Source: Bacillota bacterium
GTDB lineage: Bacteria; Bacillota; Desulfotomaculia; Desulfotomaculales; Pelotomaculaceae
Assembly (NCBI GenBank): GCA_035369845.1
Contig: DAOOVD010000003.1
Coordinates: 2,244-66,243 of the forward strand
Length of the DNA: 64,000 nucleotides
Reading direction: 5' to 3'
The notes beneath the pieces were generated by a model, which did not search any database, was not told the DNA's origin, and was given only the letters and a program-made list of their open reading frames with translations. A program made the translations under genes and the position numbers. Position 1 is the stretch's first letter; every line of letters starts with the position of its first letter. Below are positions 1,083-57,754 of the stretch, piece by piece.

Positions 1083-2294
1083 TTACGCCGTCTTTTTCTT
1101 CTTATCCGGCAACACTCTGGGCTTCTCTTTCCATAACACCGTTTCGGTAGAAATTACGTACCTGCACCCTTCCGCCGGGTCGAACATGATGTCCAGCATC
1201 ACTTCTTCCATTACCGCCCGCAGTCCCCTGGCCCCGGTACCCCTCTCCAGCGCCTCCCGAGCCACTGCCTCCAAAGCGCCCGGCGTGAACTCCAGCGTAA
1301 CCCCGTCCGGCTTGAGAAGAGCCTGATACTGTTTCACCAGGGCGTTTTTTGGTTCGGTGAGTATCCGTACCAGGTCGGCTTCCGTCAGTTTGTCCACCGG
1401 CACCACAACTGGCAGCCTGCCGATAAACTCGGGGATGAAACCGTATTTTACAAGATCTTCGGTAGTTACATTTTCCAGATCGTTGCTGTTTTTGGTAGTT
1501 GGCAACACGCCGAAACCAATGAATTTTTTATTCGTTCTTTCACGGACGATACTGTCCAACCCGACAAAAGCCCCTCCACAAATGAAAAGTATGTTTTTGG
1601 TGTCAATTTGCATGCATTCCTGGTGAGGATGCTTGCGGCCACCCTGGGGCGGCACGTTTGCCGCGACGCCTTCCAGCAACTTCAACAACGCCTGCTGGAC
1701 GCCTTCGCCGGAAACGTCCCTAGTAATGGAGGGGTTTTCCGACTTGCGGGCGATCTTGTCTATCTCATCTATGTAGACAATACCTTTCTCGGCCTTTTCT
1801 ATGTTATAGTCCGCTGCCTGAATCAGTTTGAGCAGGATATTTTCCACATCCTCGCCAACGTAGCCGGTTTCTGTAAGCGATGTCGCATCAGTTATCGCAA
1901 AAGGCACCTTGAGCAGTTTCGCAAGGGTCTCCACCAGGTAGGTCTTTCCGCTGCCGGTCGGTCCTAAAAGCAGGACGTTGCTTTTCTGGATTTCTAAGCT
2001 GTTATCGTTGCAAGTAATTCTTTTGTAGTGGTTGTAAGCGGCTACCGCCAGTGCTTTTTTGGCTTTGTCCTGACTGATTACATACTTGTCCAGGTGCTCT
2101 TTAATTTCTTTGGGTTTAGGAATAACCATTTCCTGGTTAATTTCTAGCTCGTCCGCTAAAATTTCGTTGCACAGGTCTATGCACTCGTCGCATATGTGGA
2201 CGTTGGGGCCTGCAACCAGTTTGTTTACTTCGCTATGGAACTTGCCGCAAAACGAGCAGCGGATGGGTTTTTCGTTTGTTTTTGGTTTTGTCAA
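1083..2294 (-). CDS. clpX: ClpX-family AAA+ unfoldase, element-borne paralogue 2
   Basis: C4 zinc N-domain (CSFCGK..CDEC), Walker [12 protein letters not shown], pore-1 GYVGED, IGF loop (FIGFG), C-terminal KKKKTA. Start placed at TTG 2294, 8 nt after AAAGGAG, the same context as paralogue 1. The ORF track extends to 2324. Confidence 0.85.
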
Positions 2295-2313
2295 AACGCC
2301 AACAACTCCTTTT

Positions 2314-2343
2314 CTAAAATACAAAGACCCGGCTTTTGCCGGG
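2314..2343 (-). terminator. Possible intrinsic terminator between the 286-aa ParB-fold gene and clpX paralogue 2
   Basis: Minus strand reads CCCGGC-AAAA-GCCGGG followed by TCTTTGTATTTT. The stem is short (6 bp, GC-rich). Confidence 0.4.
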
Positions 2344-2399
2344 CGCGGGGTATGTATGGCAGCAGGAGCGCAAAGTCAAGAGTTAAACCGAAAGCTGGC

Positions 2400-3260
2400 T
2401 TAAAACAACCTCAGCCACATCTGAGTCAGCTGCTTCATGTGATACATACGCCAGCACCCAAAACGATATACGGTCTTTAAAGGCGGGTTTGATGATTTTG
2501 GGGAAAATATTTCTTTTGCCGGGGCTTCTAAAAGCCAGATTTTTGTTTTTGAGTGATCCGGCTCGATCAAAACCTCAGACTCTACAACGAGCCGGTCCAT
2601 GCGCCGGAAAATACCTCGCTTTTCCGATTTTCTACAAACTGAAACCTTATACTTAAACCCCGGGAAAAGCTCTACAAAAGAACCCTCTGTATTCTGAGGC
2701 ACATCCAGCCACGCTCCGCGAAAATCGAACGCACCTGCAATCATCCCCGGAGGGCTGCTTACCCATAAATAGGCAACTGTCCCCCTAACACCTTGAGGAT
2801 TCCGAAAGTTCAGACCAAAAGAAGAAGAAAAACAATAATGACCAGGCCTGCCTTCCGGCATCAACAAAGATTCGGTGTCCTCTTTTAGACGATACACAAC
2901 AGCTTTCAGATTTTTAACTCCGGCTCTCTTTGCCAAACACACGCGGTGCTTGCCTTCCGACACCCAAAACCGGCCTTCGTATTCCAGGAGCCGGATTGGA
3001 TCGCGTTCGGCGAACGGCGTCTCGCCTTTCTTAAATATTTCCCAAAACTTCCGGCAGCGGCTGTACCTCAGACAAATGTCGAGTGATTCAGGGCGTTTTG
3101 CATTTTCGACAAGCGCTTCGAGGATCTCTTCTTCGCTATTCCTGTAAGCGCTTAACCCTAACTCCTGCAGCAAAAGGCACCTGCTACCCAACTCGGACGG
3201 AAACTCAATAATATCCGAGACTTTTACAATACGAATTTCCGATTTTTGTTTTTGAACCAT
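2400..3260 (-). CDS. ParB/Srx-fold N-terminal domain protein with unknown C-terminal half
   Basis: 286-aa ORF. PIRLLEYEGRFWVSEGKHRVCLAKRAGVKNLKAVV resembles the ParB-like nuclease-domain GxHR core. The C-terminal ~160 aa carry no motif I recognise. Confidence 0.5.
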   Translation of the reverse strand: MVQKQKSEIRIVKVSDIIEFPSELGSRCLLLQELGLSAYRNSEEEILEALVENAKRPESLDICLRYSRCRKFWEIFKKGETPFAERDPIRLLEYEGRFWVSEGKHRVCLAKRAGVKNLKAVVYRLKEDTESLLMPEGRPGHYCFSSSFGLNFRNPQGVRGTVAYLWVSSPPGMIAGAFDFRGAWLDVPQNTEGSFVELFPGFKYKVSVCRKSEKRGIFRRMDRLVVESEVLIEPDHSKTKIWLLEAPAKEIFSPKSSNPPLKTVYRFGCWRMYHMKQLTQMWLRLF

Positions 3261-3288
3261 TGCTACCGCCTCGTTAATCCACTTTCCT

Positions 3289-3621
3289 TTAGCGACAACC
3301 CAATACTTTTTGCCTTATTTCTTCCAGAGCCGCTTTTGTCTCAGTAGAATAGTCAGCGTACGGCAAAACCTGATCCCTCTGGACAATGCCTTCGAAGTAC
3401 ATCTTCCAGTCGCTGCAGCGCTCGAAAAGCTGCATTTTGCAGCCGGGGTATTTTTCGGCGGCCTCCCGTATGGTGTCGGTAATGCCCGAGTTCCATTTCC
3501 CGCCGATAGGCATAAGCACGACTTCCTCTTCTTTGGTGAGCACCGCAAGAACAGCAAATACGCACGGATCAGTAAGATTTTTGACAGCTGTTAATGCTTT
3601 GTCTTTTGGTTCACCCATCAT
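3289..3621 (-). CDS. Hypothetical protein (110 aa), present only in cassette copy 2
   Basis: ORF packed tightly between neighbours on the same strand; no motif recognised. Confidence 0.5.
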   Translation of the reverse strand: MMGEPKDKALTAVKNLTDPCVFAVLAVLTKEEEVVLMPIGGKWNSGITDTIREAAEKYPGCKMQLFERCSDWKMYFEGIVQRDQVLPYADYSTETKAALEEIRQKVLGCR

Positions 3622-3656
3622 AGAATACCCCCATCCGGCCTGCTCTTGTCGAGTTT

Positions 3657-4493
3657 TTACCGTCTTGATAGGTCAACAATTATCAGTTCACCGCCTGCAG
3701 TATCTGGTTCCCCTGCGAAAAACGCTGCAATTTTGTCCGGTATGAGGTGCAGTGTCGCCTCGATATGCGGCTTCCACCAGTCAAATATTCCGTGCTCGCG
3801 GTGGTTCAGGCTTATTTCCAGTTGAATCTTCAGGGCGTGTTTCAGGCTTTTCTCGGCAATCTCCCTTAATTCGCGGGAAAACTCGCGCGTGACTTCGTGA
3901 TTCTTTGTGCAGCGGCCGATTATCTGGGCGGTATCTTCCAGCCGCTGCCGCTCTTTAAAAGTGATGCTCAAATACCCACGAGCCACGTCGCTCTTGAGGG
4001 CATTCCGCATGTAGCAGTCCTCTAAAAGCTTTAGACCGCAGACCGCTATGGCTTTAAAAAGCCAGTCCTCATTGCAGAAGGAATTCCTGAACAAATACGC
4101 TTTTTCTGCGCTGCCGACATACATTTTATCGGTCAGTTTTTTGGCCAGGTACTCGACGTATTGGCACAAATATCTGGCACTCCACACGCCCCCGGAAAAA
4201 TGAGCAGCCCTTTCCTTCCGGTACATCGTCACCAGCCCCGGTCGGACAAGCCTGTCCCTCCGTTTGGTGTCATTTAGCTGGGCAATGAGCATATTCTTGC
4301 TGGCAGTGCCCGGAGGTACTTTGTTTATAAGGTCGGCATAGTGAACGGTGTTCCAGTTTTTAGCCAGAAATATTTCATTCGCAATGTCCAGCTCTTCCTC
4401 GATTCTTTTCCTCGCCTGGATTTCAGCGAAACGCTCCACCTCCAGGAGATCGACAGGCTTCGGCTCAGTTGGAACTTGCAACCACTTCGACAT
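3657..4493 (-). CDS. Hypothetical protein, cassette component B2
   Basis: 278-aa ORF that aligns with B1 ([38 protein letters not shown]). It overlaps the 3' end of A2 by 29 nt, which suggests translational coupling. Confidence 0.6.
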   Translation of the reverse strand: MSKWLQVPTEPKPVDLLEVERFAEIQARKRIEEELDIANEIFLAKNWNTVHYADLINKVPPGTASKNMLIAQLNDTKRRDRLVRPGLVTMYRKERAAHFSGGVWSARYLCQYVEYLAKKLTDKMYVGSAEKAYLFRNSFCNEDWLFKAIAVCGLKLLEDCYMRNALKSDVARGYLSITFKERQRLEDTAQIIGRCTKNHEVTREFSRELREIAEKSLKHALKIQLEISLNHREHGIFDWWKPHIEATLHLIPDKIAAFFAGEPDTAGGELIIVDLSRR

Positions 4494-5856
4494 CTACGAC
4501 ACCACCCTTCAAGCTAACCCATTCTCTCATTTCCCCGGCAGCTTTCTCCAAGAGGCCGGCGCACTCCATAACGCTCCTGTAGACTTCGATGTCGCTGGAA
4601 TACCTGCTTATTTCGAGCTCTGCCCGCTTCATGTGTTTTCCAATATCCTGGACAAGGGACGACAGCATGTCCTGGATTTTGTAGCGGTCCTTCTGCAGGA
4701 TCTGAGAACGGGTGAGAGCAAGCAGTTCCTCGTTCTTCTTCTGCAGCTCTTGTTTGAGATTGAGGTAGTCCTCCGGAATCTTTTCAACAACCTTGGGCGG
4801 GCGGGATTTCAGCTCGGCAATCTTTTTGTTCAGTCCCGCAATCTGTTCCTGAAGGCTTTTTATCTTGGCATCGCGGGCGGCAATATCACCGTGCAGCTTT
4901 TCTTTGATTGCCTGCTGGGCTTTCTCGTATTTTTCTTTTGCTTCACGAGCCTTTACTTCAGCCTGCTCTCTGGCCTGTCTGTAGTCCTCGGCCCTTTTCG
5001 CCATCCGGGCCGCCTTTTCTTCCAACTCGCGGATTTTTTCTTCAGCCGCTCTGCGCTCTTCACGGCGGGCATCTTCGGCGACATCAGCCAGCCGGCTCTG
5101 CATGTCAGATAGCTCCCTCCGCACGTCGTGCAACTCGTCTTCGGCTTCTATGGCCCGGCTTTCCAGAGCCTGAGCGTCGGCTTTGGCCTGTTCCAGCTCC
5201 TTTTCTAACCGTTCCTTTTCCTCGACCTTTTTGCGCAGGTCCTTTACTTCTGCAACGGTCATGTCTGCGATTTGTTCCTTGATTTGCCGGTAAATTTCAG
5301 CCTGTGCCTCGGGCGACAGGTAAGCTACTTGCTCTGCTGCTGAGGTGCCAAGTTTACCGGAGGAAACCATTGCTTGGAATTCAGGTATTAGATCGTTGAG
5401 TTTGAGAAGACGATTTAAATGTGTAACATCTACACCAACAACCTCTGCTATATCTTTGGCCGTCTTAATTTCGCCATTTTGGCGAAATTTAGGCCCCTGT
5501 CTTACACCCCAGTATTCCTTTAAAAATGCCGCGCGTCTTGCTTTCTTCATTGGGTCGTCATCAGACTGGCGCCGTTCCTCGTTCTCTGCAATTAAAAGGT
5601 ATTCTGCCTCTTCTGGCGAGATGTCTTTGATTTCGATTGGTACTTTTTCTAACCCCAACTCTAAAGCAATTCGATACCGTTGGTGACCTGAGATGATTGT
5701 GTAGTCAGGTAAGACTTTGAGCGGATCGCGAATACCGTGAAAAGCAATACTGCGCTTAATCTCTTCGTACTTCTCCTGGGAAAGATCATTATAATACTCA
5801 TTATTTTTTGGGTGCGGTTTCAGAAGTTTCGGATTGATTTCCCCCATAACTCTCAT
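4465..5856 (-). CDS. ParB/Srx-fold N-terminal domain + HTH + long coiled-coil protein, cassette component A2
   Basis: LLKPHPKNNEYY..IISGHQRYRIALELG..LIAENEERRQ matches ParB N-domain boxes. This is followed by a probable HTH and ~200 aa of heptad-like E/K/A/R-rich sequence. ATG start is 4 nt after AGGGGGG. Confidence 0.7.
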   Translation of the reverse strand: MRVMGEINPKLLKPHPKNNEYYNDLSQEKYEEIKRSIAFHGIRDPLKVLPDYTIISGHQRYRIALELGLEKVPIEIKDISPEEAEYLLIAENEERRQSDDDPMKKARRAAFLKEYWGVRQGPKFRQNGEIKTAKDIAEVVGVDVTHLNRLLKLNDLIPEFQAMVSSGKLGTSAAEQVAYLSPEAQAEIYRQIKEQIADMTVAEVKDLRKKVEEKERLEKELEQAKADAQALESRAIEAEDELHDVRRELSDMQSRLADVAEDARREERRAAEEKIRELEEKAARMAKRAEDYRQAREQAEVKAREAKEKYEKAQQAIKEKLHGDIAARDAKIKSLQEQIAGLNKKIAELKSRPPKVVEKIPEDYLNLKQELQKKNEELLALTRSQILQKDRYKIQDMLSSLVQDIGKHMKRAELEISRYSSDIEVYRSVMECAGLLEKAAGEMREWVSLKGGVVDVEVVASSN

Positions 5857-6475
5857 TTACCCCCCTAAGATTGCTCTCTACATCGCTTCCTGTGTTTTTA
5901 CCTATAGCACCGCTGGTGATGAAACGGTCCGCGACAAATATTTTCAGCCCGCTGCAGCGCAGTTCGCTTAACTGCCGGAACGGAGGGCACGCTGAAAAAT
6001 ATTGCTGAAATTCGGCACGCACCAGTTCGACCAGACTCCGTGGCAACCGTCCGCTCATGGGATTCGTTGCTGCATCAGCGTGAATAGCCGTGGGAACTAT
6101 CCCGTATATGACCAGCACATTGGTCTTTTCGTGCAACGGCGGGGCGGGAAGATACGGGCGCTCACTGAGCAAATCGGCCAGCGCCTGAGGGTTCTTGACC
6201 ACTTCCAGCGCCCACGCGCTGTGAGCTTTCGTCGCGCTACCGGCTTTTTTCCAGCAAGGGTTGCTCTCGAGCCAGCGTTCGAAGCTGCCCCTGGAAAAAG
6301 GCACGCTGATAACGCGCACGGCGTCTGAATATATCAGCTCTGCTAAGAAATCCTGCCATTCTAAAAGATAATCTTTGTACTCGAGCCCGCCAGGGTAATC
6401 TTCGGGAAAATATACGGTCGCGGCTACAAGACTTCCTTCGCGGGCCACGCCCGGAAAAATGTCGTACTCCAGCAT
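5801..6475 (-). CDS. Hypothetical protein D1, C-terminally truncated paralogue of D2
   Basis: 224-aa ORF that aligns with D2 only up to ..DRFI. The remaining ~37 aa read through the intergenic spacer into the A2 5' end in another frame. Confidence 0.5.
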   Translation of the reverse strand: MLEYDIFPGVAREGSLVAATVYFPEDYPGGLEYKDYLLEWQDFLAELIYSDAVRVISVPFSRGSFERWLESNPCWKKAGSATKAHSAWALEVVKNPQALADLLSERPYLPAPPLHEKTNVLVIYGIVPTAIHADAATNPMSGRLPRSLVELVRAEFQQYFSACPPFRQLSELRCSGLKIFVADRFITSGAIGKNTGSDVESNLRGVNESYGGNQSETSETAPKK

Positions 6476-38173: not shown

Positions 38174-38535
38174 GGTTGTTGACAAAGTAGAACCTTGAGG
38201 TTGAAACGCTCGCTCAGATGCTTAGCGTCAAGTGAGCCAGGGCAGTGCCCTGTCACCGCTCACTCCCGGTGCTTCGCGCCGGCGGCACTTGCTGCTTGCA
38301 TCGGGCGAAACCGGGCGCCTTTAACTCGCCTTCCCGGCTCGGTTCAGGCTGGCGCGGACGTCCGTGTCCGCGCCCCCGGTTTCGCAGCCTCGCTGCGCAA
38401 AGTGCTGCTGCGGCGCTTTCGCAATGTCGTTCGCCGCTGACAAAGGCGCTGCCCGCCCGCGCGGGGTTGCAGATTGTGCTGCGCAATATCGCTCGCTTCC
38501 TTCAACCCCAAGGTCCCGAACAGTTTGTCGGCAGT
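38174..38535. repeat. MITE-like fold-back element, copy 1 (362 bp, GC-rich, imperfect terminal inverted repeats)
   Basis: Left end is ggttgttgacaaagtagaaccttgaggttgaaacgctcgc. The right end reverse-complements to gccgacaaactgttcgggaccttggggttgaaggaagcgagc. The core tcggttcaggctggcgcggacgtccgtgtccgc is shared with copy 2. Confidence 0.65.
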
Positions 38536-38569: not shown

Positions 38570-38694
38570 TCAAACCTTTCATCTCCGGACTTTAAATGTC
38601 TAAAGCGTTTTTTCTGACTTGCGGATTTAATAACAACCTGAGGAACATCCTGTGTCCGGTCGATCACTTTCCTCCGGGCAGAAGACCGTCGGCA

Positions 38695-41196
38695 TCATTT
38701 CACCACAATATTTACCAGCTTGCCCGGAACCGCAATCGTTTTCACTATCTTTTTCCCCTCGGTAAGCCGGATCACCCTCGGTTCCTTCATCACCGCCTCC
38801 TGCATCTCCTGCGCCGACAGTCCCGCTTTGACCAGCAACCTGTCGCGGACTCTGCCGTTTATCTGAACCACGATGGTTATCTCGTCCTCCGCTATGGCGT
38901 CGGGATCGCAGGCGGGCCACGGCTGCAGGTGAATGCTTCCGCTGTGGCCGGAGGCTTCCCAGATTTCTTCGGTAATGTGGGGCGCAAAGGGAGCCAGCAG
39001 CAGCAGCATGCTGTCGACCGCCTCCCGCAAAACGGCCGGGTCGCGGTCGCTTTCGGGAACTTCCCTGAACTGGTAGAGGGCGTTGACCAGTTCCATTATG
39101 GCGCTGATGGCGGTGTTGAAGTTGAAACGGCTGCCTATATCCTCAGTCACTTTCTTGATAGTGCTGTGGGTGATTCTCCGCATCTCCCGGTTTACTCCCA
39201 CCAGATCGCGGGAAATCTTTTCAGGTGCCTTCCGCAGCACATCCACCAGCGGAACAACCAGGCGCCAGACCCTGTTCAGGAAGCGATAGCACCCTTCAAC
39301 ACCCTGGTCGCTCCATTCCAGATCGCGCTCCGGAGGGGCGGCGAAAAGGATGAAAAGTCTGGCGGTGTCTGCGCCGTAGCGGGCAACAATATCCTCGGGG
39401 CTCACCACGTTGCCCCTCGACTTGGACATCTTGGCGCCGTCTTTCAGCACCATGCCCTGTGTCAGAAGATTCGTAAAGGGTTCCCGGCAGTTGACCAGAT
39501 TGAGATCGTAAAGAACCTTGGTGAAGAACCGGGAATACAGCAGGTGCAGTATGGCGTGCTCCACGCCCCCGATGTACTGGTCCACAGGCATCCAGTAACC
39601 GGCCTTGTTCATGTCCCAGGGCCCCTCTTTTTCACGGGGGCTGGTATACCTGTAATAATACCAGGAAGAGCACATGAACGTGTCCATGGTGTCCGTTTCC
39701 GCCTTGCCGGGCCCGCCGCAGCTCGGGCAGACGGTGTGGACGAATTCCGGACATTCCGCGAGAGGCGAGCGTCCCGTCGGCTTAAATTCCACATCCATGG
39801 GGAGCAGCACCGGCAAGTCGGATTCCGGAACCGGTACGATGCCGCAGTTGTCGCAGTACACAATGGGTATCGGCGCCCCCCAGTAGCGCTGGCGGGAAAT
39901 CAGCCAGTCCCTCAGGCGGTACGTCACCCGGAACCTGCCCTGTCCCCTTTCCTCGAGGTGGGAAGTGATCGCCTTCATGGCCTTCACATTGGGCATGCCG
40001 TTGAAGCGGCCGGAATTGACAAGCACGCCTTCTCCCTCGTAGGCTTCCTGCATGGTGGCGGGATCGAGTCCGGCTCCCGGCGGCTGGATGACGACGCGGA
40101 CCGGGTAGCCGTACTTCCGGGCGAATTCAAAGTCCCGCTGGTCGTGGGCGGGTACTCCCATCACGCAGCCGGTGCCGTACTCCAGCAGCACGTAATTGGC
40201 CACGAGAACGGGCACCCGTTCCCCGGTCAGGGGGTTGATGCAGTACGCCCCGGTCGGCAGGCCGACCTTTTCCGCCTCCGTCGAGGTGCGGTCGATTTCA
40301 CTCAGCTTTCTGACCGACCGGACAAACTCCTTGATTTCTTCCTCCCGGTCGGTGCCGCTGATCAGTTTTTCCACCAGCGGGTGCTCCGGAGCCAGGACCA
40401 TGTAGGTCACGCCGAAAACCGTGTCCGGCCGCGTGGTGTAAACGGTGATCACGTCGTCGGAACCGGCCACCTTAAAATCTATTTCCGCGCCTTCACTGCG
40501 GCCGATCCAGTTTTCCTGCATGATCTTGACCTTCTCGGGCCATCCGTCCAAAAGTTCGAGATCATTCAACAGCCGCTCGGCGTAATCAGTAATTTTGAAA
40601 AACCACTGATCGAGTTCCCGCTTCTCCACCTGGGCCTTGCAGCGCTCGCAGCTCCCGTCTTTCAATACCTGCTCGTTTGCCAGAACGGTGGCGCACCCGG
40701 GGCACCAGTTCACCGCCGCCCGCTTTTTGTAAGCCAGTCCGTTATGAAAAAGTTGCAGAAACAGCCACTCCGTCCAGCGGTAATACTCGTGGTGGCATGT
40801 TGCGATTTCCCTTTTCCAGTCATAGCTGATGCCGAGTTGTTTCAACTGGGCGCGCATGTTGTTTATGTTTTCATAGGTCCAGTCCGCGGGGTGAATGCCG
40901 TGTTTGATGGCGGCGTTTTCAGCCGGAAGACCGAAGGCGTCCCAGCCCATCGGGTGGAGGACGTGATAACCCTGCATGGTCTTGAAGCGGGCCACCACAT
41001 CGCCGATGGAGTAATTTCTGACGTGCCCCATGTGAAGTTTCCCCGAAGGATACGGGAACATCTCAAGGCAATAATACTTGGGACGGTCGGAAAAATCGGG
41101 AACAGCGTAAATGTCGTCCTCCTCCCAGCGGGCTTGCCATTTTTCTTCCAGTTCTTTGAAATCATACCTTTCTTTCATGTTATCGCCCCTTATCAA
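38695..41196 (-). CDS. leuS: Leucine--tRNA ligase
   Basis: 833 aa. [16 protein letters not shown] (HIGH) and KMSKSRGN (KMSKS). Confidence 0.95.
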
Positions 41197-41311
41197 CCAA
41201 ACCGCATTACAGGCGCAAGCACAAGGCGCTTTTCATACAGCGCCCCTGCCACTAGAAAATTTTATCATATAAAACCCGCCGTCACAAGCCGGGCAGGCCC
41301 GGCTTCTACAA

Positions 41312-42976
41312 TCAGGCGGTCTCGATCTTCGCCGCCTCCTGGAGGCCCAGCATCTCGATCGCCATCTCGCGCAGCTTGTACTTCTGGATCTTTCCGCTTG
41401 CGGTGCACGGATAACTGTCGACAAAAGCGACGTATTCGGGAATCTTGAAGTGGGCAATCTTGCCTTTGCAATATGCCTTGATCTCATCCGGAGTAACGGC
41501 GGCGCCTTCCTTCAACTGGATGAAGGCCATTACCTCCTCGCCGTACCTGACGCTCGGCACGCCCACCACCTGGACGTCCTTGACGGCCGGGTGGGTATAG
41601 AGAAATTCCTCTATTTCCCTCGGGTAAACGTTCTCCCCGCCGCGGATGATCATATCTTTCAAGCGGCCGGTGATCTTGCAGTAGCCGTTTTCATCCATCG
41701 TGGCCAGGTCGCCGGTGTGCAGCCAGCCGTCCTTGTCGATGGCCGCCGCCGTCGCCTCAGGCATTTTGTAATATCCTTTCATCACGTTGTAGCCCCGGGC
41801 GCAGAGTTCGCCCTGCACGCCGGGCGGCACTTCCCGGCCGGTTTCCGGGTCTACGATTTTCACCTCTACGCCGGGCACCGCCCGGCCTACGGTAGTAACC
41901 CTCAGTTCAAGCGGCTCGTCCGTCCTGGTCATGGTAATCGCGGGAGAGGATTCGGTCTGTCCGTAGGTAATGGTTATTTCTCCGGCGCCCATAATATCTA
42001 CAACCTTTTTCATCACCTCGATGGGACATGGAGACCCCGCCATAACTCCCGTGCGAAGGGAAGATGTATCGTATTTTTTCTTCTCCATTTCCTCCAATTC
42101 CATTATAAACATGGTGGGAACTCCGTGAACAGCCGTGCAGCGCTCTTTTTCAACCGTCTCCAGCACTTTCCTCGGATCAAATGTTTCAACCGGAACCATA
42201 GCTGCCCCCGAAACAACACAGCACATGGTGCCGATGACGCATCCGAAACAGTGGAAAAAAGGCACCGGAATACACAACCTGTCGGTAGGACCGAGGTTCA
42301 TGCATTCCGCCATACCGCAGCCATTGCCGATAAGATTGTGATGTGTTAGCATGACTCCTTTCGGAAAGCCTGTGGTGCCGGAAGTATACTGCATATTGAC
42401 CACGTCGTCGGGCCCGAGAACGGCCCGGCGGGCGGCAAGTTCGCTGTCCGGCACTTCTTGACCCATACTCATAACCTCATCCCAGGTGAACATGCCGGGA
42501 TAGCGTTTGTCTCCGAGAAAGATCACGTTTCTCAAAAGGGGCAGCCTTTCCGACTTCAGCCGGCCGGGTTCGCAGTCTTTCAACTCCGGGCACAGTTCAT
42601 AAATCATTCCTATGTAATCGGAATTCTTCGTTCCTTCGATCAATAAAAGAGTGGTCGAATCAGACTGCCTCAAAAGGTACTCGAGTTCGAACACCTTGTA
42701 GTTGGTGTTTACCGTTACGAGCACAGCCCCCGCCCGCGGGCTGCCGAACTGGGTAATCACCCACTCGGGCACGTTGGTCGCCCAGATGGCGATGTGCTCC
42801 CCTTTTTTGATCCCCAGTTTCAAAAGCCCCTTTGCCAGCCGGTCGCAAACTTCCCGGAACTCCCTGTAGGAATAGCGCAAGCCCCGGTCGGGGTAAACAA
42901 GGGCGTCGTTGTCGGGATAGGACTCCGCTATACGATCGACAAGCTCTCCTATAGTTATCTTCCCAAAATCTTTCAT
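41312..42976 (-). CDS. AMP-dependent synthetase/ligase (acyl-CoA ligase family)
   Basis: MQYTSGTTGFPKGVMLTH, YGQTE, GWLHTGD, RLKDMIIRGGENVYP. ATG 42976 lies 7 nt after GGGAGGG. The track ORF starts at TTG 43036, inside the leader. Confidence 0.85.
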   Translation of the reverse strand: MKDFGKITIGELVDRIAESYPDNDALVYPDRGLRYSYREFREVCDRLAKGLLKLGIKKGEHIAIWATNVPEWVITQFGSPRAGAVLVTVNTNYKVFELEYLLRQSDSTTLLLIEGTKNSDYIGMIYELCPELKDCEPGRLKSERLPLLRNVIFLGDKRYPGMFTWDEVMSMGQEVPDSELAARRAVLGPDDVVNMQYTSGTTGFPKGVMLTHHNLIGNGCGMAECMNLGPTDRLCIPVPFFHCFGCVIGTMCCVVSGAAMVPVETFDPRKVLETVEKERCTAVHGVPTMFIMELEEMEKKKYDTSSLRTGVMAGSPCPIEVMKKVVDIMGAGEITITYGQTESSPAITMTRTDEPLELRVTTVGRAVPGVEVKIVDPETGREVPPGVQGELCARGYNVMKGYYKMPEATAAAIDKDGWLHTGDLATMDENGYCKITGRLKDMIIRGGENVYPREIEEFLYTHPAVKDVQVVGVPSVRYGEEVMAFIQLKEGAAVTPDEIKAYCKGKIAHFKIPEYVAFVDSYPCTASGKIQKYKLREMAIEMLGLQEAAKIETA

Positions 42977-43037
42977 AAATTTTCCCTCCCACAAAAAAAT
43001 AGCATTATTTTTATCGACATCATGGACGGTTAACAAT

Positions 43038-43364
43038 AAAAAACCCCCCGCCCCTGTTTATACAGGGACGAGAGGTTGTTTCCCGCGGTACCACCCTTCT
43101 TGGCAAAAAACTTTTGGTGGAGCTGGCGGGGATTGAACCCGCGTCCTCTTCCATGCCAAGGAAGCGCGCTCCCACTGCGCCACAGCCCCATCGTCTGCCC
43201 TCTTTGTCGCGGTAACGGCGCGTCCGGCCTGAAGTAATTTGTTTTTCCTCCAGACAGCTCTAAGGCGAGCTTCAACAGCCTCGCCCGCCGCCTCGCACCC
43301 GTACGGCGGCTCTCTTCAGAGCTGCGCTGTTTACTACTCCTCGTCATTGCCTCGGATTAAACTG
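43038..43364 (-). promoter_or_regulatory. T-box riboswitch leader (Stem I, antiterminator/T-box, terminator) with a tRNA gene embedded in it
   Basis: Read on the minus strand. The Stem I-like region has GCAATGACGAGGAGTAGTA, an AGAGAG bulge and a GGGTGCGA distal loop. T-box core AGGGTGGTACCGCG lies at 43084-43097, with ..CGTCCC antiterminator closure. A 14-bp terminator (CCTCTCGTCCCTGT/ACAGGGGCGGGGGG) plus T6 lies at 43038-43075. Confidence 0.7.
43115..43189 (-). tRNA. tRNA-Ala (anticodon GGC), CCA encoded
   Basis: Hand-folded cloverleaf. Acceptor GGGGCUG/CAGCUCC with G3:U70. D arm GCGC-AGUGGGA-GCGC. Anticodon arm CUUCC-UUGGCAU-GGAAG. T arm GCGGG-UUCAAUC-CCCGC. A73-CCA at the 3' end. Confidence 0.9.
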
Positions 43365-43370
43365 AAATCT

Positions 43371-43399
43371 ATTATAAATTATTAGTTTTTATATGTCAA
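43371..43399 (-). promoter_or_regulatory. Consensus sigma-A promoter driving the T-box/tRNA leader
   Basis: Minus strand has TTGACA (43399-43394), a 17-nt spacer and TATAAT (43376-43371). Confidence 0.75.
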
Positions 43400-43425: not shown

Positions 43426-43788
43426 TTATATATTCACCGGTACCCCCACTACCCTGGCGTCTCCCCACAGGCGTTCGAGGTTGTAAAACTGCCGCTCGGC
43501 CTCCTGGAAGACATGAACAACAACATCACCGTAATCCACCAGCACCCAGCCGCCCTCCCGGAAACCCTCCCGGCGCAGGGCGAAGACGCCTTCCTCCTCA
43601 AGCTTCTCAATGATATTTCCAACAATCGCCTGCACCTGTGCCCTGGAGCGGCCGCTGCAGATTATGAAGTAGTCGGCCACGATGGATACTTTTCGAATGT
43701 CGAGAACGGTGATATCCAAAGCCTTTTTGTCTTCCGCCGCCTTTACGGCGACATTTACCACTGCCTGTGGACTTAGGGACAATGCCAC
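43426..43788 (-). CDS. rsfS: Ribosome silencing factor RsfS
   Basis: ALDITVLDIRKVSIVADYFIICSGRSRAQVQAI..WVLVDYGDVVVHVFQEAERQFYNLERLW. Confidence 0.9.
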   Translation of the reverse strand: MALSLSPQAVVNVAVKAAEDKKALDITVLDIRKVSIVADYFIICSGRSRAQVQAIVGNIIEKLEEEGVFALRREGFREGGWVLVDYGDVVVHVFQEAERQFYNLERLWGDARVVGVPVNI

Positions 43789-57495: not shown

Positions 57496-57754
57496 GATTG
57501 TAGACAAACCCAAACAATACAAAGCGCATGGTGTTGAAACAAGCTGCTCCGTTACGGAGCGTCGTCAGTAAACTAAGCGAAGCTGAGGATGCGAAATTGG
57601 ATGAGCGGACTGGATGTCCGCGAAAGCCTGAACCGAACCAGGACGGTGAGTTGAAGGCGGTCCAATTTCGCCCGTAGCAAGCTGACAGTTTACTAGACGC
57701 GGAGTAGAGGAGCCAAGCGGTTTCAACACCATGAACGACTTTGTCAACAACCAG
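57496..57754. repeat. MITE-like fold-back element, copy 2 (259 bp), inverted relative to copy 1
   Basis: The right end reverse-complements to ggttgttgacaaagtcgttcatggtgttgaaac, and the left end is gattgtagacaaacc..catggtgttgaaac. There are internal paired arms (gcgaaattgga/tccaatttcgc, cagtaaact/agtttactag). The core is homologous to copy 1. Confidence 0.65.

Follow-up and report, generated by a model that had tools for sequence, protein, structure and literature searches.

The canonical leuS T-box leader (Rfam RF00230), as found in Desulfolucanica intricata and Desulfurispora thermophila, carries in its Stem I a K-turn, a CUC specifier followed by a purine, an AG bulge and a distal loop; it continues with Stem II, the IIA/B pseudoknot, the RRRNG-Stem III-AA frame, a UGGU bulge, a competing terminator and the downstream leuS gene. 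Here we describe a leader with all of these elements in a stretch of 64,000 nucleotides (nt) of DNA, called the window below, from a Bacillota bacterium of the Pelotomaculaceae (GenBank assembly GCA_035369845.1, contig DAOOVD010000003.1, positions 2,244 to 66,243). It differs from the canonical leaders in the loop of Stem III, which has 5-8 nt in those leaders but 86 nt in this one, where it holds a complete tRNA-Ala(GGC) gene, so that the leader would also be a tRNA precursor. Insertions in T-boxes are known: a review mentions, unexplained, 'curious insertions in every domain' (PMC7583486), and stem Sa is an insertion in the glyS T-boxes of staphylococci (PMC9177973). Like these lineage-specific insertions (PMC9177973; PMC7583486), the tRNA is peripheral extra RNA on a canonical T-box and is conserved within lineages; however, the known insertions are hairpins without a gene function of their own, whereas the present one is the gene of a different tRNA that brings identity elements and processing signals of its own, and it occurs in several phyla. 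No paper found in a search of open-access literature and bioRxiv describes a T-box that contains a tRNA gene, which agrees with an earlier sequence-only reading of this stretch that knew of none, and an earlier mention in older comparative T-box papers is possible. Standard annotation can detect either component, the tRNA or the T-box, on its own; the novelty is therefore limited to their nesting and its conservation.

Two further kinds of transcript are comparable. In the thrU-tyrU-glyT-thrT-tufB operon of E. coli and in rRNA operons, tRNAs without a promoter are excised by ribonuclease (RNase) P and 3' nucleases. The tRNA described here likewise has no apparent promoter of its own and would lie in a longer transcript with another function; in those operons, however, the tRNAs stand beside the other elements, whereas here it stands between the two strands of a required regulatory helix. 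Moreover, cleavage of the thrS T-box leader of B. subtilis stabilises the mRNA, and RNase P has been reported to cleave some riboswitch leaders. In such leaders, as would be the case here, a cut made after the regulatory decision parts the sensor from the mRNA, but in the present leader a true tRNA would set the sites, and what is cut out would itself have a function.

We consider it likely that the leader is a leucine-specific, transcription-attenuating T-box for an acyl-CoA ligase gene and leuS, that it carries a functional tRNA-Ala(GGC) as a passenger in the loop of Stem III, and that it serves as the precursor of this tRNA. The intact leader, about 300 nt long with the insertion, matches RF00230 over model positions 1-219 of 219 with 114.5 bits (gathering cutoff 93; E=1.4e-24), and both Stem I and the antiterminator are found; the sole anomaly in the covariance-model alignment is an 86-nt insertion that replaces the consensus Stem III loop of about 7 nt. 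Stem I has a K-turn, an S-turn specifier loop (AGUA/GAA) whose 3' side is GAAGCUCG, a codon with its trailing purine, an AG bulge and a distal loop, and the same elements are found in homologous leaders. In the rest of the alignment no canonical element is missing: the distal loop reads GGUGNRA, CCGUUA belongs to the IIA/B pseudoknot, Stem II and Stem III are there, and both AGGGUGGUACCGCG, the T-box sequence, and CGUCCC are present. The elements that the sequence-only reading had picked out in Stem I (AATGA, AGTAGTA, AGAGAG and a CCGCCG/CGGCGG-type helix) are thus present in the alignment; its CAGCUCU/AGAGCUG helix is an alternative pairing that occurs only in the single-sequence minimum free energy fold and does not belong to the consensus Stem I. 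The coordinates of all features are given in Table 1.

The discriminator motif was defined as RRRNG-Stem III-AA, and Stem III is indispensable in it, although its stem and loop sequences vary (PMC7583486). In the window this frame reads AAGAG-GGCAGA...UUUGCC-AA with the tRNA between the strands, and the GGCA...TGCC flank that had been suspected of being Stem III forms the base of this stem. The T-box sequence GGGUGGUACCGCG was rightly recognised shortly after the tRNA, and it begins 18 nt 3' of the tRNA end rather than 20. Its UGGU bulge (43093-43090) is complementary to A73-CCA. Bacterial tRNA-Leu carries A73, and the bulge therefore fits tRNA-Leu. The terminator is present with its U run but has 16 pairs instead of the 14 first counted, and its overlap with the antiterminator makes the two mutually exclusive. 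Upstream, the consensus promoter noticed earlier has all 12 of 12 consensus positions and is the sole promoter-like site 5' of leader and tRNA alike: a consensus scan of the minus strand between 43371 and 43042 gave no other promoter-like site, and neither a promoter of the tRNA's own nor a terminator was found between the operon promoter and the tRNA. The AMP-ligase gene noted after the terminator is indeed there (42976-41312), although leuS just beyond it had been overlooked.

Table 1. Positions of the features of the leader, its operon and the related loci (window numbering unless another locus is named)
Locus	Feature	Positions	Strand	Details
Window	rsfS, upstream neighbour of the leader	43426..43788	-	marks the synteny rsfS-[leader]-(ligase)-leuS
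Window	sigma-70 promoter TTGACA-17-TATAAT	43371..43399	-	-35 43399-43394; -10 43376-43371; 12/12 consensus matches
Window	Complete T-box leader	43061..43356	-	Stem I, Stem II, IIA/B pseudoknot, Stem III, antiterminator; encloses tRNA
Window	Stem I	43257..43350	-	K-turn AAUGA; specifier loop 5' side AGUAGUA; AGAGAG bulge; distal helix GCCGCC/GGCGGC; GGGUGCGA loop
Window	Specifier and trailing purine	43266..43269	-	CUC (Leu) 43269-43267; G 43266
Window	Purine string and Stem III 5' strand	43194..43204	-	AAGAG (RRRNG) 43204-43200; GGCAGA 43199-43194
Window	tRNA-Ala(GGC), 75 nt	43115..43189	-	G3:U70; A73; encoded CCA; anticodon 43157-43155; U(-1) at 43190
Window	Stem III 3' strand and conserved AA	43100..43107	-	UUUGCC 43107-43102; AA 43101-43100
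Window	T-box sequence/antiterminator	43064..43096	-	GGGUGGUACCGCG 43096-43084; UGGU bulge 43093-43090; CGUCCC
Window	Intrinsic terminator	43036..43077	-	16 pairs 43077-43042, then U run; overlaps antiterminator 3' half
Window	AMP-binding acyl-CoA ligase (fatty acid CoA ligase family), first regulated gene	41312..42976	-	PF00501, PF13193
Window	leuS, leucine--tRNA ligase, 3' of ligase	38695..41178	-	TIGR00396, 1130 bits
Pelotomaculum thermopropionicum SI	T-box leader			125 bits; locus around 843.8-844.2 kb of AP009389; tRNA-Ala(GGC) present; Stem III encloses tRNA
Desulfoscipio gibsoniae	T-box leader			133.7 bits; tRNA-Ala(GGC) present; Stem III encloses tRNA
Desulfotomaculum copahuensis	T-box leader			119 bits; tRNA-Ala(GGC) present; Stem III encloses tRNA
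Desulfurispora thermophila	T-box leader			103.3 bits, 224 nt; tRNA absent; GGUCGCG-uuuugcug-CGCGGCC, 8-nt loop
Desulfolucanica intricata	T-box leader			142.6 bits, 210 nt; tRNA absent; AAGUG-GGUAAA-acguc-UUUACC-AA, 5-nt loop
L241	Ligase in relative's locus	4227-5891
L242	Ligase in relative's locus	4206-5870
L243	Ligase in relative's locus	3699-5363
L244	Ligase in relative's locus	1973-3631
L011, L026, L047, L048, L053-L055, L058, L059, L064, L075, L088, L104, L105	Class IV aminotransferase between leader and leuS
L019, L031, L038, L049, L063, L104, L108, L120	tRNA-Ala(CGC) upstream of Stem I

The nesting is not restricted to the window. One genome per species (185,579 species) was scanned with a pattern neutral to tRNA identity, namely a GGTTCRANTCC T-loop followed after 14-44 nt by GGGTGGNACCGCG, and metagenome contigs were scanned as a replicate with the broader T-loop pattern GGTTCRANNCC. 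Each scan gave at least 120 loci, and all counts in this work are among the matches listed. Among 120 genome matches, 110 hold a complete tRNA-Ala(GGC) and four the same tRNA clipped by the edge of the locus (114 in total); the remaining six are chance matches or a hairpin, and no other tRNA was found inside a T-box among these 120. The 120 metagenome matches comprise 98 with tRNA-Ala(GGC), two clipped copies, one variant with G33 and 19 others (17 without a tRNA, one with tRNA-Met and one with tRNA-Tyr and a T-box-like sequence). Overall, more than 212 loci carry the nesting; they come from isolates, metagenome-assembled genomes (MAGs) and metagenomes, and their labels span at least six phyla. 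According to the record titles, the carriers belong to Bacillota (Syntrophomonas, Thermosyntropha, Desulfofundulus, Desulfitispora, Peptococcaceae, Thermacetogeniaceae), Chloroflexota (Thermomicrobiales, Anaerolineae, Chloroflexia, Ktedonobacter, Sphaerobacter, Caldilineae), Armatimonadota, Candidatus Sysuimicrobiota, Coprothermobacterota and Caldisericota. RF00230 aligns at full length (1-219) across the tRNA in 19 of the 19 genome loci that could be tested; 10 of them reach the gathering score and nine score 50-91 bits, with E values from 1e-8 to 1e-18.

The gene 3' of the leader is leuS wherever the sequence suffices. In the genome set leuS follows directly in 94 loci, after a class IV aminotransferase in 14 and after an acyl-CoA ligase in three; the corresponding metagenome numbers are 75, 10 and one, with three loci cut off past the first gene and nine too short. 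The constant downstream gene indicates a single orthologous locus, the leuS leader. The aminotransferase (ilvE-like, PF01063) lies between the tRNA-bearing leader and leuS in loci labelled Sysuimicrobiota, Armatimonadota or Anaerolineae and in several records titled only 'bacterium'. With 114 of 120 and 98 of 120 matches of identity-neutral patterns holding the same tRNA in the same leader, chance is excluded as an explanation of the nesting. The oddity of the arrangement might suggest an accident without function, such as an insertion of recent date, a tRNA pseudogene in decay or an artefact of assembly, with an inactivated T-box, and one metagenome copy (L190) has a tRNA-like sequence that ARAGORN does not call. 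Nevertheless, more than 212 independent loci in at least six phyla, compensatory changes in both components and conserved T-box motifs contradict an accident, which we find hardly credible.

Several matches deserve a comment of their own. L190 is a leuS-type leader whose tRNA-Ala-like sequence has G33 in place of U33 and may be a decaying copy. L182 (metagenome contig Ga0066793_10076155, ~1-180) carries a tRNA-Tyr(GTA) followed 44 nt later by the T-box-like GGGUGGGACCGCG...CGUCGUCCCC, with the contig end cutting the upstream part; the locus may represent another type of tRNA nested in a T-box or a mere coincidence. Other candidates were rejected. L044, L046, L066, L067, L117 and the 17 metagenome matches lack evidence of a tRNA in a T-box, and those inspected are GC-rich, apparently coding DNA, while L236 is a tRNA-Met followed by a chance match. 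L017 (Oribacterium sinus, 5523-5764) is an ordinary T-box (105.4 bits) in which a Stem III hairpin with GGTTCGATTCC mimics a T-loop and is not a tRNA. Such mimicry means that the scan pattern alone is insufficient evidence.

The position of the tRNA is fixed by two independent comparisons. Stem III was searched in 107 homologous leaders with the search anchored on RRRNG and AA; this superseded a search for the longest contiguous helix, which mis-assigned partners at bulges. In the first five positions of Stem III, 88% of cells pair; with 3' strands shuffled among loci the figure was 65.5% and, over 1000 trials, never exceeded 69%. Positions 2-5 exchange whole pairs (AU 49/GC 34; CG 50/UA 38; AU 56/GC 16/CG 11; GC 47/AU 29). 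The AA directly 3' of Stem III is found in 105 of 110 leaders, and the RRRNG flank is also kept. The two flanks of the tRNA thus build the helix that the discriminator requires, which means that the T-box would work on the unprocessed transcript. For the second comparison, orthologous rsfS-[leader]-(ligase)-leuS loci were retrieved via LeuRS homologues, and both carriers and tRNA-free relatives were found (Table 1). The Stem III of Desulfolucanica, GGUAAA/UUUACC, matches the GGUAAR/UUUACC that encloses the tRNA in Desulfofundulus. Orthologues with an intact T-box and no tRNA indicate that the tRNA sits exactly at the apical loop and that the T-box is independent of it. Together with the RF00230 alignment, the covariation in the 107 leaders and the 5-8 nt loops of these orthologues bear out the central claim of the sequence-only reading, which placed a complete tRNA-Ala(GGC) gene within a T-box, 3' of Stem I, 5' of the antiterminator and in the Stem III loop.

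The shortness of Stem III (5-8 bp), its indispensability for the discriminator (PMC7583486) and the many carriers that are thermophiles or syntrophs by their record titles would be compatible with a mechanical role, in which the tRNA clamps the short strands of Stem III together, or in which 75-90 extra nt delay the antiterminator for the docking of a class II tRNA-Leu. However, the same short GGUAAA/UUUACC stem does with a loop of only 5 nt in Desulfolucanica, and conservation of the anticodon, G3:U70, A73 and U(-1) would be superfluous in a clamp and in a spacer alike. We therefore regard such a clamp or timer as very unlikely.

The tRNA itself also argues for a passenger with a function. 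The cloverleaf proposed from the sequence, with G3:U70, anticodon GGC and encoded CCA, was recovered by ARAGORN (43189-43115) and by Rfam RF00005 (67.7 bits, cutoff 29). All 110 of the homologous tRNAs have G3:U70, A73 and seven of seven acceptor pairs, and the GGC anticodon is present in every homologue called, in the genome as in the metagenome set. Among 43 distinct tRNA sequences, 100% of the 903 stem cells are paired, G3:U70 is found in 43/43 and 15 of 21 pairs have changed on both sides; covariation scores 0.528, whereas shuffled sequences give 0.137, and none of 500 shuffles reached the observed values. These alignments place the tRNA under full tRNA constraint. CCA is encoded in 82 of the 110 homologues and absent from 28, mostly in loci labelled Chloroflexota. 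Directly 5' of G1, 74/111 leaders have a U, compared with a U background of 19%, and U(-1) is a known preference of RNase P. In seven genes of the window, GCC is the commonest alanine codon (126/248). Indirectly, U(-1) and the codon usage suggest a functional tRNA-Ala that may be processed, charged and used in decoding.

The same U(-1) enrichment, which shows selection for RNase P cleavage, might be read in another way: the tRNA might be primarily a processing device, a kind of tRNA punctuation in which RNase P and 3' cleavage separate the Stem I/II sensor from the expression platform. It would set a new 5' end of the ligase-leuS mRNA, tune its stability or recycle tRNA-Leu, with decoding as a secondary role. 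The tRNA is necessarily on every read-through mRNA, and the leader cleavages mentioned above for thrS and some riboswitches would be in line with such a device. Yet the invariant GGC, G3:U70 and A73 and the covariation of the full cloverleaf exceed the needs of a processing signal. Moreover, no drift to another tRNA identity is seen, though it would be possible if only the shape mattered, and the T-box and the operon are kept in tRNA-free orthologues. A primary role in processing is thus rather unlikely in our opinion.

Which tRNA the T-box senses depends on its specifier. According to TBDB (PMC7778990), the specifier lies within the five final bases of the loop. For GAAGCUCG this rule yields the codon CUC with G as its trailing purine; in the -1 register the codon would be GCU. 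The motif GAA-CUC-R (R being G or A) is found in 102 of 111 related genome leaders and in 84/98 of the metagenome set. CUC together with the downstream leuS makes this a leucine T-box; since the operon consists of the acyl-CoA ligase and leuS and the specifier is CUC, the riboswitch would sense tRNA-Leu and not the embedded tRNA. The AUU or UUA specifier that had been read by eye was mistaken, as the covariance-model alignment assigns those bases (CCUU-A) to the helix that closes Stem I. GCU, an alanine codon, was rejected as well: the extra G that creates it is present in only two of the 111 genome leaders (the window and one other) and in one of the 98 metagenome leaders.

It had also been suggested that the embedded tRNA acts in cis. 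Under this proposal, tRNA-Ala would be a ligand of, or a competitor at, its own T-box, with its anticodon at the GCU register, its ACCA end at the UGGU bulge or its elbow at the Stem I platform, and leuS expression would follow alanine or tRNA-Ala status. The GCU register of GAAGCUCG in the window could pair with GGC through a G-U wobble, and A73-CCA of the embedded tRNA could pair with UGGU. However, CUC-R is the conserved register, the rarity of the extra G having been noted above; CCA is not encoded in 28/110 homologues; the regulated gene is always leuS; and the T-box is intact in two orthologues that have no tRNA. In addition, the 3' end of the tRNA runs on into the transcript, whereas the discriminator excludes anything past the 3'-OH (PMC7583486). 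A cis-acting tRNA-Ala is consequently highly improbable.

The leucine-specific T-box with a passenger tRNA could operate as follows. RNA polymerase would initiate at the consensus promoter, and tRNA-Leu would be captured by Stem I and Stem II through pairing of CUC with the anticodon and contact with the elbow. Once the 5' strand of Stem III has been made, the 75-nt tRNA would fold on its own as an autonomous domain, its ends would meet, and the 3' strand would close the helix. UGGU would then probe the ACCA end of the bound tRNA-Leu: if uncharged, the antiterminator would form and transcription would read through; if charged, the terminator would form. The terminated leader and the read-through mRNA would both be pre-tRNA-Ala, in which RNase P would cut at G1, while exonucleases (for copies with an encoded CCA) or RNase Z (for copies without one) would produce the 3' end and free the mature tRNA-Ala(GGC). 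Given that the tRNA lies upstream of the terminator, it would be made from the leader promoter regardless of leucine status, and a leader that is otherwise discarded would serve as a tRNA precursor. Of the three readings offered at the outset, terminated leaders doubling as tRNA precursors is the one that is best supported; an uncoupling of Stem I from the antiterminator by RNase P is possible as a consequence of this precursor role.

Some points weigh against this interpretation. The comparisons establish the anatomy, its conservation, the covariation of tRNA and Stem III, the leucine specificity and the independence of the T-box from the tRNA, whereas we infer from them where transcription starts, how folding is timed relative to RNase P cleavage, and that the tRNA is processed, matures and is aminoacylated. 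If RNase P were faster than the terminator decision, it would sever Stem I from the discriminator. The embedded gene is the single tRNA found by a scan of the 64-kb window. The minimum free energy fold of the 327-nt leader alone has neither the cloverleaf nor the canonical Stem I; such failures of single-sequence folds are usual for RNAs of this kind, and with both structures missing the fold was considered uninformative and was not used. Finally, the arrangement has been kept in at least six phyla, and invariably it is this tRNA that is found, next to leuS. Such persistence does not follow in any obvious way from a pure passenger role, although common descent together with selection on the tRNA would account for it.

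There is a minor but appreciable chance that the nested tRNA is part of the regulatory circuit, through a programmed cleavage of the sensor from the platform, or that the arrangement is ancestral to leuS T-boxes and records an origin of the T-box discriminator in a tRNA-Ala operon. Programmed cleavage could set the 5' end and lifetime of the mRNA, free tRNA-Leu or time the decision. With regard to the ancestral reading, the leader is itself flanked in several Anaerolineae loci by a tRNA-Ala(CGC), which ends about 5-20 nt 5' of Stem I (Table 1). This gap leaves no room for a promoter, so that the leader is apparently co-transcribed within a tRNA-Ala operon; it also favours a single transcript for leader and nested tRNA, as the passenger reading has it. 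In two loci (L111 and L115, Anaerolineales/Chloroflexia), the gap between tRNA-Ala(CGC) and tRNA-Ala(GGC) is only about 80 nt, and Stem I is thus seemingly missing for the most part. The T-box sequence and terminator are kept, and a LeuRS-like open reading frame (ORF) follows, clearly so in L111; these loci may hold a truncated or degenerate T-box.

Concerning the genes of the locus, the LeuRS of the window is 100% identical to a protein of a Bacillota MAG and 86% identical to that of P. thermopropionicum SI. The gene rsfS precedes the leader, with nadD, proB and obg 5' of it. The ligase scores 809.8 bits against NF009233, slightly below the cutoff of 832. It lies between the leucine T-box and leuS in the window, Pelotomaculum, Desulfoscipio, Desulfurispora, D. 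copahuensis and Desulfofundulus (positions in four relatives' loci are given in Table 1); it is conserved in Desulfotomaculia and apparently under leucine control. As a speculation, the enzyme could activate a branched-chain acid, for example isovalerate, toward leucine synthesis. Elsewhere in the window, the TwoAYGGAY RNA (RF01731) has two weak matches, at 38269-38423 on the minus strand, between leuS and a GerA gene, and at 57552-57707 on the plus strand (45.5 and 43.7 bits, gathering cutoff 43). A 950-amino-acid ORF without a Pfam match runs antisense to leuS (38596-41448, plus strand) and is almost certainly a spurious shadow ORF.

To conclude, our comparisons suggest that a riboswitch can hold a working gene for another RNA within its own helix, and that leader transcripts usually deemed waste may be tRNA precursors. 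For annotation, the nesting accounts for leuS T-boxes of Chloroflexota and other phyla that are too long and score below the Rfam threshold (50-91 bits). In the loop of Stem III a folded insertion of 75-90 nt is tolerated, which is useful for work on T-box structure and for engineering. The arrangement also raises a kinetic question, namely the order of co-transcriptional T-box sensing and of the RNase P cleavage that would split the sensor. Naturally matched leaders exist in cultured organisms, with the tRNA in P. thermopropionicum, Desulfoscipio gibsoniae and Syntrophomonas wolfei and without it in Desulfolucanica and Desulfurispora. Thus, in these bacteria, a leader that controls leuS according to tRNA-Leu may at the same time supply the cell with tRNA-Ala.

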